NCBI RefSeq assembly: GCF_002104335.1
Contig: NZ_CP020867.1
Coordinates: 1,059,206 to 1,091,205, forward strand
Length of the DNA: 32,000 bases
Direction: 5' to 3'
From: Campylobacter cuniculorum DSM 23162 = LMG 24588
GTDB lineage: Bacteria; Campylobacterota; Campylobacteria; Campylobacterales; Campylobacteraceae
In this document: piece by piece, positions 17,662-21,348 of the stretch
How the letters are laid out: each line of letters begins with the position of its first letter
Numbering within the stretch: position 1 is the stretch's first letter
Made by a program: the position numbers and the translations under genes
Notes under the pieces: generated by a model
Told to the model about the DNA's origin: nothing
What the model saw: the letters and a program-made list of their open reading frames with translations, nothing else
Database searches by the model: none

Positions 17662-17762
17662 AATTTAAATTTTTATTTTTAATGATGTATTTTTGTTTTG
17701 AAATTGCAATATTTATAGAAATAATACCTTATGGACTTTTAGAAGGAACTATTTCGAAATGA
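17649..17762 (+). pseudogene. orphan 3' end (last ~33 codons plus TGA) of the polytopic membrane-protein gene, whose intact copy is 19556..20035
   Basis: 17649..17928 is near-identical to 19922..20195. The differences are one C/T, one G/A and a 6-nt AAGAAA insertion after the ATG. There is no 5' part upstream; upstream sequence is the fdhU flank. Confidence 0.85.
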
Positions 17763-18049
17763 AAGAAATAATAAAATATTATGCAACAATTTATGTAGAT
17801 GAGTTATTAGAAGATGAAATGTTAAAGCATGTTGATTTTTCTTTGCTATTTAAAGCAAAATTTTCTCAAATTTCTAAGCAAATCGACCTCACCCACGCTT
17901 TTTTAGGACTTACTAAAGGTAAAAGTCCTGATGAGTTAGATAAAATAGATGAAACATTAAAACAAGAATATCTTAAAAATAAAGAATGGGATAAAATAGA
18001 TCAAAAATGGTATGAAGCCAAAGAATTTAGTGAATTTATGATAGTTTAA
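17759..18049 (+). CDS. N-terminal-module-only paralog (fragment N1) of the 438-aa gene at 20032
   Basis: 96 aa. The first ~57 residues are almost identical to 20032..21348 (YYATIYVDELLEDEMLKHVDFSLLFKAKFSQISKQIDLTHAFLGLTKGKSP). It ends KEFSEFMIV*, which is the -1 frameshifted equivalent of EANEFNDGFW in the full-length gene. It retains the His but lacks the Cys-containing part. Confidence 0.7.
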   Translation: MKEIIKYYATIYVDELLEDEMLKHVDFSLLFKAKFSQISKQIDLTHAFLGLTKGKSPDELDKIDETLKQEYLKNKEWDKIDQKWYEAKEFSEFMIV

Positions 18050-18095
18050 GAAATTTTTTCTTACTGAAACAATCAAAATTTTAAATAAATTATCT

Positions 18096-18101
18096 TATAA
18101 T
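18096..18101 (+). promoter_or_regulatory. candidate -10 box (TATAAT) carried inside the repeated cassette, upstream of the membrane-protein gene
   Basis: TATAAT lies 29 nt before the TTG start, with AGGAG RBS in between. The identical element recurs at 19522..19527 and 31312..31317. Confidence 0.4.
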
Positions 18102-18129
18102 AGAATAACTTATTATATTAGGAGTAATT

Positions 18130-18588
18130 TTGCAAATTCCTATTTATTCTAAACTCAAAGCAAAACTAGAAAGTAAAGGAATAGACAATATATCAAGCGG
18201 ACAAATTGCTTGGTTTGTGTGTAGTTTGGTTCTTGCTTTGGTGACTTTTCTTATTGTCTATTTTACAGGGATTGTTGAAGATAAAAATTTATTTTTAGCA
18301 ATATTTGAATTGTTTCGATGGCAACTATTTATTTTTATCATATACTTTTGCATTCCTTTTAATCTATTATATATTTACAATGCCATTCCTTTGGTTTTGT
18401 CTAGTATAATTATGTTTTTAATAGTTATATATTCTGGCATAGATTTTTTTATTATTAATTGTTGTGGGGTAAGCATATTGCTTTTGTTGGCTTTTTTCAA
18501 AAGAAAATTTATATTTAGCGTTTTATTATTTGCCATTGGTTATATTTGTTCATATTTTTTGCTTTATGCAATTGCAACTTATCATTAG
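18130..18588 (+). CDS. polytopic membrane protein, immunity-like, variant 1 (constant N-terminus, variable body)
   Basis: 152 aa. TTG start after AGGAG. The first 38 aa (MQIPIYSKLKAKLESKGIDNISSGQIAWFVCSLVLALV) match 19556 and 31346. Beyond nt 18243 the sequence is unrelated but still 3-4 hydrophobic helices. Confidence 0.7.
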   Translation: MQIPIYSKLKAKLESKGIDNISSGQIAWFVCSLVLALVTFLIVYFTGIVEDKNLFLAIFELFRWQLFIFIIYFCIPFNLLYIYNAIPLVLSSIIMFLIVIYSGIDFFIINCCGVSILLLLAFFKRKFIFSVLLFAIGYICSYFLLYAIATYH

Positions 18589-18600
18589 GGAGATTTATAA

Positions 18601-18939
18601 ATGAAGTATTATGTAACGATTTATATTGACGAGTTATTGGAATTTCAAACAATAAAAGATTTGTGAAATATGAAAGGTTTAGACCTCACCCACGCCTTTT
18701 TAGGACTTACTAAAGGTAAAAGTCCTGATGAGTTAGATAAAATAGATGAAACATTAAGACAAGAAAAACTTAAAAATATTGATTGGAAAGATTTTGATAA
18801 GAAATGGTATGAAGCTAAAGAAGCTAATGAATTTAATGATGGTTTTTGGGGCTTTGGAATTGGAATGAATTCTGTTAATGTTACGACTAATAAGGTATTA
18901 AAAAATAATCAATGTATAGCAAGGGATATCTATGAATAA
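18601..18939 (+). pseudogene. fragment N2 of the 438-aa gene family, interrupted by an in-frame TGA
   Basis: The ATG at 18601 gives MKYYVTIYIDELLEFQTIKDL, then TGA at 18664..18666. The same frame continues NMKGLDLTHAFLGLTKGKSPDELDK...EANEFNDGFWGFGIG, homologous to codons 1-117 of 20032..21348. It diverges and stops after NNQ. Confidence 0.75.
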
Positions 18940-19272
18940 CAAATTTAATTTTGCTAAATTCATATTAGATTGTTTTGCTTGTTGTGGATTGACTATAATA
19001 TCTTATTTCATATTTTTCTTACCTATTATTTATTTTATTAGATTTATTCATTTAATAATAATAAATATAGATATTTTAAATGGATTTGGTAACTATGCCT
19101 TGTTTTTTACATTGTGTCATATTGCATTTTTACTATTTGGTTTTTATTAGAAAAGAGAAATATTATAAAATATAAAATTCATAAATTAAGTTTTTGGATA
19201 GTATTTGCATTTGCAAATAGTTTTTGGTGGTATTTAGCTTATTGGTTATCAAATGGAGGATTTTATAAATGA
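18932..19272 (+). pseudogene. small membrane-protein gene, apparently frameshifted
   Basis: The ORF 18932..19150 (72 aa, hydrophobic) stops at TAG. Another frame stays open across that stop and reads ...FLLEKRNIIKYKIHKLSFWIVFAFANSFWWYLAYWLSNGGFYK*, ending in an ATGA overlap with the next gene at 19269. One extra T in the T5 run at 19141..19145 would fuse the two frames. Confidence 0.5.
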
Positions 19273-19475
19273 AATATTATGTAACGATTTATATCCACCC
19301 TATGGATTGGAACATTCCCCATGCCTTTTTAGGACTTACTAAAGGTAAAAGTCCTGATGAGTTAGATAAAATAGATGAAACATTAAAACAAGAATATCTT
19401 AAAAATAAAGAATGGGATAAAATAGATCAAAAATGGTATGAAGCCAAAGAATTTAGTAAATTTATGATAGTTTAA
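19269..19475 (+). CDS. fragment N3 of the 438-aa gene family (shortened N-terminal module)
   Basis: 68 aa: MKYYVTIYIHPMDWNIPHAFLGLTKGKSPDELDK...KEFSKFMIV*. 19317..19669 is near-identical to 17891..18243. Confidence 0.7.
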   Translation: MKYYVTIYIHPMDWNIPHAFLGLTKGKSPDELDKIDETLKQEYLKNKEWDKIDQKWYEAKEFSKFMIV

Positions 19476-19934
19476 GAAATTTTTTCTTACTGAAACAATC
19501 AAAATTTTAAATAAATTATCTTATAATAGAATAACTTATTATATTAGGAGTAATTTTGCAAATTCCTATTTATTCTAAACTCAAAGCAAAACTAGAAAGC
19601 AAAGGAATAGACAATATATCAAGCGGACAAATTGCTTGGTTTGTGTGTAGTTTGGTTCTTGCTTTGGTGTGTGCTGTGTTTGTTGTTTTGTATAAGCTTA
19701 AGAATTTAGAAATTAGGCTTTATGTTATTTTTTTATTTCCCATCTTGCTATTTTACATTGCTATATTTTGGTTTATTTTTTTAAGTTTTTATAAAAACTT
19801 CTTTTTTGTCCATCTTTTTTGTTATTTTTTTATGTATATCTTTAATATAATTTTTGATGATTTTTATTTAAATCTTGCAATAATGAATATTTTATTAATG
19901 ATAATATGGCTTTTTTTTATTAAATTGCATTTAA
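19444..19934 (+). repeat. 491-bp cassette (gene 3' tail + promoter/RBS + 5' 379 nt of the membrane-protein gene), copy 1
   Basis: Identical to 31234..31724 except one C/T (19930 vs 31720), by direct line-by-line comparison. The first 226 bp also recur at 18018..18243. Confidence 0.9.
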
Positions 19935-20035
19935 AATTTAAATTTTTATTTTTAATGATGTATTTTTGTTTTGAAATTGCAATATTTATAGGAATAATAC
20001 CTTATGGACTTTTAGAAGGAACTATTTCGAAATGA
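19556..20035 (+). CDS. polytopic membrane protein, immunity-like, variant 2 (intact reference copy)
   Basis: 159 aa with a TTG start. Strongly hydrophobic F/I/L-rich body. The stop overlaps the start of the 438-aa gene (ATGA). Confidence 0.75.
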   Translation: MQIPIYSKLKAKLESKGIDNISSGQIAWFVCSLVLALVCAVFVVLYKLKNLEIRLYVIFLFPILLFYIAIFWFIFLSFYKNFFFVHLFCYFFMYIFNIIFDDFYLNLAIMNILLMIIWLFFIKLHLKFKFLFLMMYFCFEIAIFIGIIPYGLLEGTISK

Positions 20036-21348
20036 TAATAAAATATTATGCAACAATTTATGTAGATGAGTTATTAGAAGATGAAATGTTAAAGCATGTT
20101 GATTTTTCTTTGCTATTTAAAGCAAAATTTTCTCAAATTTCTAAGCAAATCGACCTCACCCACGCTTTTTTAGGACTTACTAAAGGTAAAAGTCCCAATG
20201 AGTTAGATGAACAAGATAAAGAATTAAGACAAGAAAAACTTAAAAATATTGATTGGAAAGATTTTGATAAGAAATGGTATGAAGCTAAAGAAGCTAATGA
20301 ATTTAATGATGGTTTTTGGGGCTTTGGAACTGGAACAGGTGCTGTTAATGATACAGCTGGCAAAGTATTTAACAATAACCAATATGTATTGGATAATAAT
20401 GTTAATAAAAATTGCTATATTATTAAAAAACTAAGAAGTTCACAAACTTTCTACCCTTCTAATCGTTGCACCTTAGAAATCTCACAAGAACAATATGAAA
20501 CCTTACTTACAAATATTAAAGATGATTTTAACACTACAAAAGAAATTACGCCTAATAGTCAAAAACCAATCAATGAAGAATTTACTTATAAACTTCTTGA
20601 AAATAACTGCGTCACTTGGGTTATTCAAAAACTTTCTGATATAGGAATAGAGGTTATCAATATTGATGAATGGATTCCTGATGCTCCTATGGTAGATGAT
20701 TTAAAGGAAAATCTTGATTTAATTAAATCTCTCCACTCTATCTTTTTAAAATTTCAAAATATTGATGATAATTTACAAAGTGTAAAAGGTGCAAAAGCTT
20801 TTAGAGATTGGGCTAGAATGCTTATAAATAATTCTTTAATGCAAGAAATTTATCTTGATGAATATAAAAAACAATACAATAATGAAAATCTTAGTTTGGA
20901 GCAAAAAGAAGTTTTGTATGCTTTATGGAATATTACAAGGGCTTATAAAACCTTAGAAAATCTTTTAGAGCGTTTGATTATAAAATCCAACACTAAAAAT
21001 CTAAAAGGCGATTTTGAATTGATTTATTTCGATAGAAAAGATAGGCAAATTAAACTTTTAAAAGCGAGCAATGATTATGAAGCTATCATTATACAAGATT
21101 TAGATTTGAGTCAAAAATATAATAATTTTAGTGTGAGTAAGTTTTATCCTTTTATTTTTATACCTAAAGATGAAATGATTTCAAGAATGCTTTATCATAA
21201 GTATGATTATGGTAATATTTCACAAGAATACCAAAAAGATAGAAATGAATTTTATTTTAATGTTTTAGCGGGAGAAAAAAGTGATAAATACTGGAGTTCT
21301 AGCTATCATAAAATGACTAAAAATTTAAGAAAAATTCATGTCTCTTGA
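20032..21348 (+). CDS. full-length 438-aa protein; N-terminal half has a permuted papain-fold (PPPDE/DeSI-like) His...Cys signature; candidate toxin/effector
   Basis: Beta-strand-like YYATIYVD, then THAFLGL (His44), then FTYKLLENNCVTWVIQKLSDIGIEVINIDEWIP (Cys193). Compare the PPPDE pattern VYDL...H-S-G-I-E and Y-x-L-x-x-x-NCNHFS...L...IP-x-WI. Existence as a gene is confident; the function is a motif-level inference. Confidence 0.55.
   Translation: MIIKYYATIYVDELLEDEMLKHVDFSLLFKAKFSQISKQIDLTHAFLGLTKGKSPNELDEQDKELRQEKLKNIDWKDFDKKWYEAKEANEFNDGFWGFGTGTGAVNDTAGKVFNNNQYVLDNNVNKNCYIIKKLRSSQTFYPSNRCTLEISQEQYETLLTNIKDDFNTTKEITPNSQKPINEEFTYKLLENNCVTWVIQKLSDIGIEVINIDEWIPDAPMVDDLKENLDLIKSLHSIFLKFQNIDDNLQSVKGAKAFRDWARMLINNSLMQEIYLDEYKKQYNNENLSLEQKEVLYALWNITRAYKTLENLLERLIIKSNTKNLKGDFELIYFDRKDRQIKLLKASNDYEAIIIQDLDLSQKYNNFSVSKFYPFIFIPKDEMISRMLYHKYDYGNISQEYQKDRNEFYFNVLAGEKSDKYWSSSYHKMTKNLRKIHVS

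Follow-up and report, generated by a model that had tools for sequence, protein, structure and literature searches.

We analyzed a 32,000-nt stretch of the Campylobacter cuniculorum chromosome (the window, within which all coordinates are given) that carries a tandem array of 5' modules of one gene, encoding a putative effector (E) of a type VI secretion system (T6SS), alternating with genes for small polytopic membrane proteins (M), the putative immunity proteins. The array occupies the left end of a ~14.1-kb island (roughly 17640-31730) whose G+C content is low (22-33%). Four copies of the 5' module start at 17759, 18601, 19269 and 20032, as the first-pass annotation of the window had described, and pairwise blastn comparisons among them returned E-values of 1e-34 to 1e-178; the likeness is, therefore, not a matter of chance. 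The last copy alone reaches full length (438 aa, 20032-21348). Every copy is preceded by a small polytopic membrane-protein gene or its remnant (17652-17762, 18130-18588, 18932-19272 and 19556-20035), with ATGA overlaps at 17759, 19269 and 20032 and a 12-nt gap ahead of 18601, so that all the structural details reported in that annotation were correct. An assembly artefact was ruled out, because the identical sequence is found in two complete C. cuniculorum assemblies (the second is CP063091.1) and the architecture is repeated in many independent genomes. The 438-aa protein has a counterpart of 100% identity in C. cuniculorum, encoded on a 1.93-Mb contig.

All elements of the array are on the plus strand. 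Copy 1 (17759-18049) is an effector 5' fragment of 96 codons that has the His of the full-length protein but lacks its Cys193. Comparison with copies 3 and 4 revealed that it is a chimera: its head is 98.8% identical to copy 4, whereas its tail is 98% identical to copy 3 but 83% to copy 4, with the switch in the His-motif segment near 17892. A junction block follows (18012-18243), composed of the fragment tail (..AKEFSEFMIV and a stop codon), an 80-nt spacer with a Shine-Dalgarno sequence and the constant first 38 codons of the next M gene. This gene, M152 (18130-18588), has a TTG start and encodes a 152-aa polytopic protein with five transmembrane (TM) segments predicted from hydropathy and no match in Pfam, NCBIfam or PADLOC, a putative immunity protein. 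Copy 2 (18601-18939) is a 5' fragment that extends to about codon 125 and contains one in-frame nonsense codon (TGA at 18664-18666) in place of the TGG of relatives that read ...KDLWNMKG...; the open reading frame (ORF) resumes at 18670 and ends at 18939. The two ORFs that come next (18932-19150 and 19114-19272) are a single M2-type membrane gene (18932-19272) that alignment with the intact 113-aa gene of C. lari (L025:9663-10004) identifies as a frameshifted pseudogene, split by the loss of 1 nt within a T run (T5 instead of T6, near 19146). The change in the run (19140-19150; T5 in the window, T6 in C. lari) may mark either a fixed pseudogene or a slippage-prone tract. Copy 3 (19269-19475) is a 68-codon fragment with a loop of the IHPMDWNIP type, identical to the loop type of the full-length C. 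lari effector E444 located behind M2. M159 (19556-20035) encodes a 159-aa polytopic protein with five TM segments and is the putative cognate immunity gene of the full-length effector, as its homologues in C. jejuni plasmids precede effectors of equal loop type. Copy 4, the full-length effector E438 (20032-21348), comprises an N-terminal permuted papain-like domain (His44...Cys193) and a helical C-terminal domain, as predicted from the alignment and an AlphaFold2 (AF2) model.

Parts of the array are repeated almost without change. Copies 1 and 3 both terminate in ..KEFS(E/K)FMIV and a stop because they have lost 1 nt that copies 2 and 4 retain. The junction block that begins with this tail is present three times (18012, 19438 and 31228; 232-503 nt, 98-99% identity) and, at 31228, truncates another gene, leaving a lipase fragment. 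A 352-nt block (17892-18243) is 99% identical to 19318-19669, and a 124-nt block is repeated at 17639 and 19912. Such repeats, together with the near identity between the heads of copies 1 and 4, are what would be expected if the array were purely local, that is, if one unit of M and E had been duplicated in tandem in this genome and had then decayed with no import or exchange. We consider this origin very improbable, because the three upstream units differ in both M and loop type, the part that copies 2 and 3 share with copy 4 reaches only 80-89% identity and their loops are unrelated to that of copy 4, and the unit types are closer to alleles of other species than to each other. For example, the DNA of the truncated unit (M2 and copy 3) matches that of the intact C. 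lari unit (M2 and full-length E444) at 93% identity. Furthermore, different strains join identical junctions to different upstream units. Simple tandem duplication was rejected accordingly, the units being of different allelic types.

To define the unit that varies, membrane proteins were clustered by their variable part and effector starts by the loop that precedes the His. The M type was associated with the loop type of the effector copy directly downstream, whether full or fragment (adjusted mutual information, AMI, of 0.50; n=51; none of 2000 permutations came up to this value). Between a fragment's loop type and the M gene following that fragment, there was no association (AMI -0.01, p=0.52, n=29). 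Where the effector is full length, a match of at least 90% between two M variable parts is always accompanied by a loop match of 89-100%, also in pairs with no more than 63-66% identity in the effector C-terminus. The converse is seen as well: two effectors that agree in every residue between the His motif and the stop may differ completely in their loops and M proteins. The C. jejuni T6SS plasmids L033 (pT6SS_BCH10632) and L035 (the RM3194 plasmid) provide the clearest case. Their identity is 99.9% as far as about codon 28 of M; a segment of unrelated sequence follows (517 versus 421 nt), and from about codon 43 of the effector the two agree again, at 99.3% over 2.5 kb. The two effector proteins show 24% identity in the loop and 100% from the His motif onwards. 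From the linkage between M and loop and the boundaries of the plasmid swap it follows that the polymorphic cassette consists of the variable three-quarters of M and the first ~20-45 codons of the effector, including the loop just before the catalytic His. It is flanked upstream by an arm made of the spacer and the constant first ~30-38 codons of M and downstream by the His-motif segment of the effector (THAFLGLTKGKSPDELD...). Near the left limit of the variable cassette, the constant 5' part of both M1-type membrane genes of the array contains a 9-bp hairpin and a T-rich stretch (18192-18214 and 19618-19640).

We mapped the loci by tblastn and blastp, 21 of them in contigs sampled at one genome per species and the others reached via homologues, plasmids and the membrane protein. 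Alternating arrays of M genes and 0 to 8 fragments were found in about 30 Campylobacter and Helicobacter loci, ordered as M, fragment, M, fragment and so forth, up to a last M, the full effector and a gene similar to G454, the gene downstream of E438. The hosts are C. coli, C. jejuni, C. taeniopygiae, C. troglodytis, H. valdiviensis, H. didelphidarum, H. saguini, H. cinaedi, another Helicobacter and a metagenomic Helicobacter. Simple pairs of M and effector with the ATGA overlap also occur, for example in C. lari, H. japonicus, H. didelphidarum and Mucispirillum. Some arrayed orphan immunity-like genes match intact pairs elsewhere, as in the case of C. lari M2-E444 and of the M159-type genes that stand before full-length effectors of the same loop type in plasmids. 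The comparison of unit number and order across strains, which the first-pass annotation had proposed, uncovered differences at one and the same site. Plasmid L034 is L033 plus one extra unit (L035 being the swapped variant described above), and a chromosomal site adjacent to a radA-like gene has 1, 3 or more, 4 or 6 units in different C. coli and C. jejuni strains. Many of the array loci sit on contigs of 2-6 kb; the repeats in the arrays account for these fragmented short-read assemblies, as they do for the many small "hypothetical proteins" and pseudogenes called by annotation pipelines at these loci. Some loop types are common to both genera, such as DPLVECFLDFKNQCYWQREDFT in C. coli, C. 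jejuni, H. valdiviensis and H. didelphidarum (loops at, e.g., L003:10001, L004:4130, L006:562 and L009:553), and several types have a conserved Cys pair. The sharing of loops and the Cys pairs suggest old alleles kept across species and, possibly, a disulfide.

Several classes recur among the junctions between a fragment and the next M gene, and the gaps are mostly -4, about 10, 41 or 80 nt. Fragments ending in ..NNQY....L overlap an M2-type start (9 cases) and those ending in ..SNF(K/R)xIV overlap the start of another M2 subtype (6 cases). The ending ..KNKEFKLIKSIK is followed by 41 nt and an M1-type gene (4 cases, plus plasmids), and ..KEFSxFMIV by 80 nt and an M1-type gene in the C. cuniculorum genome. 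One and the same junction may be attached to different units on its upstream side, as in L004 versus L005 and in the plasmids. Recombination at shared arms would explain these mixed attachments as well as the chimeric structure of copy 1.

The full-length effector belongs to a family of 119 homologues (at 90% clustering) that is confined to Campylobacter, Helicobacter and a few Mucispirillum, with proteins mostly of 415-450 aa. Alignment of 41 members identified His44, Cys146, Asn192-Cys193 and Trp196 as invariant and a stretch between strand 1 (YYVTIYI) and the His motif (THAFLGL) as hypervariable in length and sequence. The order of His44 before Cys193 in the 41 sequences is the catalytic order of the permuted NlpC/P60 superfamily. 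In the AF2 model (mean pLDDT 81) the variable loop (residues 15-42) is unstructured, and a Foldseek search with the model retrieved TseH (6v98) as the sole notable match in the PDB (probability 0.98, E 0.039, TM-score 0.48 relative to the target). A relaxed Pfam scan of the 41 members returned sub-threshold matches only, all to the papain clan: DUF2459 in 25 (best E 4e-4), LRAT in 9 (0.007) and Lnb_N in one (0.046). We therefore read the effector as a permuted papain-like (NlpC/P60-type) His-Cys enzyme on the basis of the predicted fold and residue order, its sequence not placing it in a known family. A profile search of 1.84 billion protein representatives found no distant relatives and no bridge to TseH or Tox-Act1. 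According to a 2026 study, both of these permuted NlpC/P60 T6SS toxins act on phospholipids, and the immunity protein of Tox-Act1 has two transmembrane helices (PMC12994826). The effector is probably lipid-targeting.

Some C. coli and C. jejuni strains have lost the effector. In L036/L037 (6747-7589), L041 (4618-5460) and L038 (4634-4969), a deletion fuses effector residues 78-94 to the C-terminal region of the G454-like gene, generating a 280-aa chimeric ORF, and up to four membrane genes and fragments remain upstream. Hence, the internal deletion of toxic 3' parts with retention of the membrane genes, one of two turnover mechanisms suggested in the first-pass annotation, also takes place. 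The other mechanism, the repeated insertion of units made of a membrane gene and a new 5' end, gives the best fit overall, given that M type co-varies with the downstream loop, the M2-E444 pair exists intact and units are swapped or added between identical flanks. The persistence of intact M genes where the cognate effector is truncated or deleted is a hallmark of orphan immunity genes, and it argues against M proteins being accessory factors for membrane insertion, activation or export of the effector, in which case the array would reflect helper diversification. In favor of such a role, M matches no known immunity family in Pfam, NCBIfam or PADLOC, and some of its homologues are labelled "Yip1 domain-containing" in UniRef. 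A membrane-embedded immunity protein is, however, documented for the related toxin Tox-Act1 (PMC12994826), and we regard the helper role as highly unlikely.

The association of the effector with a T6SS comes from homologous loci in C. lari, the C. jejuni plasmids and C. coli, where the genes are physically linked. In C. lari the order is vgrG, hcp, tssM, ..., the M2-type membrane gene, the effector (E444), a G454-like gene, a G1152-like gene and two G428-like genes. In the T6SS plasmids of C. jejuni and C. coli, an operon of effector, G454, G1152 and G428 that is 89.7% identical in DNA to window positions 19497-27450 abuts a gene with an FHA domain, presumably the T6SS gene tagH. The C. coli chromosomal copy adjoins tssM and hcp, and the metagenomic Helicobacter locus adjoins Tae4 amidase genes. 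C. cuniculorum is reported to possess a T6SS (PMC9676060), which lies outside the window. Downstream of E438, the window encodes on the plus strand G454 (21338-22702), a conserved carrier protein with homologues of ~90% identity that often have a C-terminal Phage_lysozyme domain, and then G1152 and G428 (22699-27454), the remainder of the conserved operon, in the same order as beside the T6SS genes of C. lari and the C. jejuni plasmids. The G454 homologues of C. jejuni and C. coli (P0169-P0288) are 83-91% identical over the 454 aa and are often extended to 560-795 aa with the Phage_lysozyme domain, a pattern suggestive of a T6SS carrier with exchangeable toxin tails. The window G454 is the bare carrier. 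Across the homologues, the gene next after the N-terminally polymorphic effector shows polymorphism of the conventional, C-terminal kind. A PAAR-like protein has been described in this variable region (PMC8285248), and this report and the lysozyme-tailed homologues make G454 probably the PAAR-like partner.

These observations lead us to propose, with a probability of about 0.65, that the region is the variable 5' end of a T6SS effector operon and that the array consists of displaced cassettes, each an immunity gene and an effector head, that have been exchanged and stacked via homologous recombination. The basic unit would be the small polytopic membrane gene M translationally coupled to the downstream effector gene E. 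A first, illegitimate event would join a truncated effector to the leader of another M gene. Once formed, this junction would make a repeat of the block that runs from the His motif through the tail and spacer to the constant start of M, and homologous recombination could then insert the tail, M and a new loop into any full-length effector, with the His-motif region as the left arm and a segment further inside the effector as the right arm. Each addition would strand the earlier M and the 5' stub of the former effector upstream of the single full-length E. Recombination at the arms, after DNA uptake or between sister copies, would produce a clean cassette swap, and unequal crossing-over may also contribute. 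Under this model, three cassettes of the window would be retired, with decay in two of these, and M159 and E438 would form the single active pair. Context and fold point to E being a toxin delivered by the T6SS, and the loop would carry the specificity. The retired M genes may be kept for protection against kin that still use the old effector.

Several points weigh against this proposal. The toxicity of E, the protection by M and secretion are all inferences drawn from context and fold. The effector has no significant family-profile match in Pfam or NCBIfam, searches of the PDB with the single sequence and with the profile returned nothing meaningful, and the fold match to TseH is modest. No T6SS structural gene is found in the window. 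The association between M and loop could partly reflect plain physical linkage rather than co-adapted specificity. Finally, the fragments are better preserved than mere scars should be: in 31 of 41 the canonical start is retained and the frame remains open as far as the next M gene; pN/pS lies at 0.15-0.35, also among fragments of one junction class, compared to 0.39 in the same region of full-length genes; and a neutral simulation gave just a 1-4% chance that fragments of ~115 codons would remain stop-free at 0.2 substitutions per site. The proposal thus needs an added assumption. Either the fragments are young or repeatedly refreshed, since every insertion takes up a head from a functional gene, or selection acts on the frame or the peptide, for example, through the translational coupling of M.

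The preservation of the fragments also lends some credit to a role of the short copies as small genes in their own right (regulators, decoys or M partners) or as ORFs held open in cis for coupling or to avoid polarity on M and E. Most fragments are intact ORFs that overlap the next M start or end within a few bases of it, with a 4-nt overlap at 17 of 34 junctions, and they combine low pN/pS with a scarcity of the stop codons expected under neutral decay. In addition, N-terminal-only proteins dominate the family in the exhaustive profile search, which recovered 82 representatives among the 1.84 billion, ~50 of them short and N-terminal-only and 11 C-terminal-only, an asymmetry that contig ends alone would not give, although clustering at 50% identity inflates the count in the variable region. 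We nonetheless consider this explanation doubtful. The fragments range from 27 to 174 aa and end anywhere in the catalytic domain, from about residue 16 to 175. They keep the His yet stop ahead of Cys193, which none of them has, and therefore cannot be active enzymes. Although the M genes are mostly intact, several fragments bear nonsense or frameshift mutations, as illustrated by the nonsense codon in window copy 2 and by frameshifts or 5' truncations in others, and chimeras with lipase 5' ends occur. Nor do the fragments form a phylogeny separate from the full-length alleles, with which they share their loop types, and a fragment's loop shows no linkage to the M gene downstream. The first-pass annotation had named independent, conserved small genes as the outcome that would speak against displaced modules, and the shared alleles, scattered ends and disrupted frames indicate otherwise. 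Low pN/pS is, moreover, expected if most of the divergence predates truncation, when the sequence was part of a working gene.

A more elaborate scheme would have self/non-self specificity reside in the N-terminal head of the effector, in the hypervariable loop next to the catalytic His, co-adapted with the variable membrane part of the upstream M. The stack would then be more than a graveyard and serve as a maintained reservoir of open, translated head and immunity cassettes for re-heading the effector through recombination at the conserved arms. A lineage with such a reservoir could switch its compatibility type yet stay immune to its former type. We hold this scheme to be unlikely.

Our preferred reading of the locus, a displacement array, has precedents. 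In Vibrio cholerae, an incoming T6SS effector-immunity module displaces the resident effector and the old immunity genes pile up downstream (Kirchberger et al., 2017; PMC5361080). As in those arrays, the resident immunity-like gene would be left behind to form orphan arrays, members match intact pairs in other strains, and turnover would be by homologous recombination, with or without an illegitimate step, in a naturally transformable species (PMC5361080). Unlike in V. cholerae, the polarity is reversed: the immunity-like gene is upstream, the array grows on the 5' side and effector 5' stubs are retained. The Campylobacter cassette also takes in the N-terminal loop of the effector alone, while the rest of the protein can stay 100% identical, and one recombination arm is provided by the constant N-terminus of its immunity-like, polytopic membrane proteins.

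The array likewise resembles Rhs, contact-dependent inhibition (CDI; CdiA-CT/CdiI), MafB and LXG systems in having a polymorphic toxin-immunity pair and displaced modules that are stockpiled beside the expressed gene with a conserved stub usable as a homology arm (PMC3482391). In those systems the C-terminal toxin domain varies, and the immunity gene and the orphans lie downstream (PMC3482391). Here, by contrast, variation affects the N-terminal loop by the catalytic His, the immunity-like gene and the orphans are upstream and the catalytic domain is not swapped. The locus does not, therefore, conform to a classical polymorphic toxin: the L033 and L035 effectors differ in the N-terminal loop and not from the His motif onwards, and the membrane gene is upstream with an ATGA overlap. 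The opposite polarity relative to Rhs/CDI orphan arrays that the first-pass annotation had pointed out thus stands, with the membrane gene upstream and all fragments upstream of the full gene.

Compared to TseH (V. cholerae VCA0285, PDB 6v98) and to Tox-Act1/Imm-Act1 of Salmonella, the effector shares the placement of His before Cys (H44/C193 in E438; C186 in TseH) and the T6SS context; its fold would be papain-like, with TseH as the best fold match of the model in the PDB, and the Tox-Act1 immunity partner is membrane-embedded too (PMC12994826). Unlike these toxins, E438 has no detectable sequence homology to them and has an extra C-terminal domain of ~230 residues, its immunity-like gene is upstream and encodes ~5 TM segments, and no 5' fragment arrays are described for TseH or Tox-Act1. 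Neisseria pilE/pilS and Borrelia vlsE are silent-cassette gene conversion systems, in which, as in the window, non-functional partial copies of one gene end lie in tandem beside one full expression copy, with conserved segments for recombination. Unlike in those systems, each stored unit here also holds a complete, probably expressed, membrane gene, and the stored copies resemble heads that were once in use and have been displaced, more than a purpose-built set of donors. The system works like a T6SS effector-immunity displacement array with inverted polarity and polymorphism of the head, not the tail. Our literature searches found no description of arrays of 5' fragments and immunity genes.

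The T6SS effectors of Campylobacter and enterohepatic Helicobacter are almost uncharacterised. In published surveys, the genes found in this variable region have no assignment (PMC8285248, PMC9676060), and, according to a 2026 preprint, no C. jejuni cargo effector had been characterised before it. The analysis supplies a candidate effector family (permuted NlpC/P60-like His-Cys) and a candidate immunity family (polytopic, with a constant N-terminus and a variable body), as well as a cassette with mapped boundaries and natural swap and add variants on otherwise identical plasmids. It would also extend the rule for polymorphic toxins, because displacement arrays need not be composed of 3' tips and downstream immunity genes; with the immunity gene upstream, the architecture becomes a mirror image.

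A second effector family in the same islands, a class 3 lipase, obeys the mirror-image rule. Sequence comparison identified in the window (29476-31265, plus strand) three 5' fragments of a class-3 lipase (142, 24 and 196 aa) alternating with the membrane genes M112 (29901-30239) and M113 (30325-30666). The fragments end at or soon after the GFRGT motif, and the last of them ends in a ..KEFSKFMIV tail borrowed from the other effector family, with an M159-type gene next. Full-length homologues have 617-805 aa, and in two of them (701 aa in L013, 24.2 bits; 666 aa in L017, 26.0 bits) Pfam Lipase_3 scores above its 22-bit gathering threshold. The match is at residues ~175-260, past the ends of the window fragments, which consequently lack the catalytic Ser region. 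No full-length lipase gene is present in the window. In C. troglodytis and the metagenomic Helicobacter, full-length lipase genes are preceded by an alternating array, lipase 5' fragments likewise alternate with small membrane genes at L013:2872-8295 and L029:12876-17283, and chimeric ORFs in which a lipase head is joined to an effector fragment exist as well.

Between the conserved operon and the lipase array, the plus strand carries a classical 3' orphan (27477-29479), also recognized by sequence comparison: an 86-aa ORF that matches the last ~80 residues of the 1152-aa protein G1152 at 71% identity, followed by G580, a 580-aa lipoprotein paralogous to G428. With a 3' orphan beside the 5' arrays, both displacement polarities coexist in one island.

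Profile scans covered 13 island ORFs (10 with Pfam, plus three large genes rescanned at E≤1, and 10 with NCBIfam), with M113, M156 and ORFs below 60 aa outside the scan. At E≤0.01, Pfam, NCBIfam and PADLOC returned nothing for the effector, M152, M159, M112, G454, G1152, G428, G580, two effector fragments and the 142-aa lipase fragment. The relaxed Pfam scan gave no match for G454, G1152, G428 or G580 and just one sub-threshold, unrelated match (PSI_PsaH, E 0.005) for the 196-aa lipase fragment. No site-specific integrase was detected beside the array among the scanned ORFs (Pfam, E≤0.01). An integron-like or transposon-like cassette was rejected on the grounds that there is no integrase or transposase among the scanned ORFs and that the cassette boundaries lie inside coding sequence, at conserved gene segments. 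A scan for promoters and terminators predicted 35 sites versus 31.9 in shuffled sequence, and this lack of enrichment made it uninformative about transcription units.

The island is bordered by a small ORF (17323-17559) on one side and a minus-strand uracil-DNA glycosylase gene on the other. Just upstream (14030-17559) are a 340-aa minus-strand gene, a 405-aa polytopic membrane protein and a 78-aa protein that, by eye, resemble selenophosphate synthetase and a YeeE/YedE-TusA-like pair. On its left, the island starts with an M159-type 3' remnant on the plus strand (17639-17762; the last ~36 codons) that is 95% identical to 19912-20035, its ORF (17652-17762) matching residues 124-159 of M159 at 94%. 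At the right edge is M156 (31346-31816, plus strand), an M159-type membrane gene that is 99% identical to 19438-19940 up to 31730, about where its 3' end has been replaced. The island thus opens with the 3' 124 nt of an M159-type gene and closes with the 5' ~385 nt of one (31346-31730), and the two ends overlap by ~28 nt in M159 gene coordinates. An exact 13-nt direct repeat, AAATTGCACTTAA, is located at both ends (17649-17661 and 31712-31724), where the intact M159 gene reads AAATTGCATTTAA (at 19922). From its sequence, this arrangement looks like a circular unit that opened inside an M159-type gene upon integration or an island able to excise and restore the gene.

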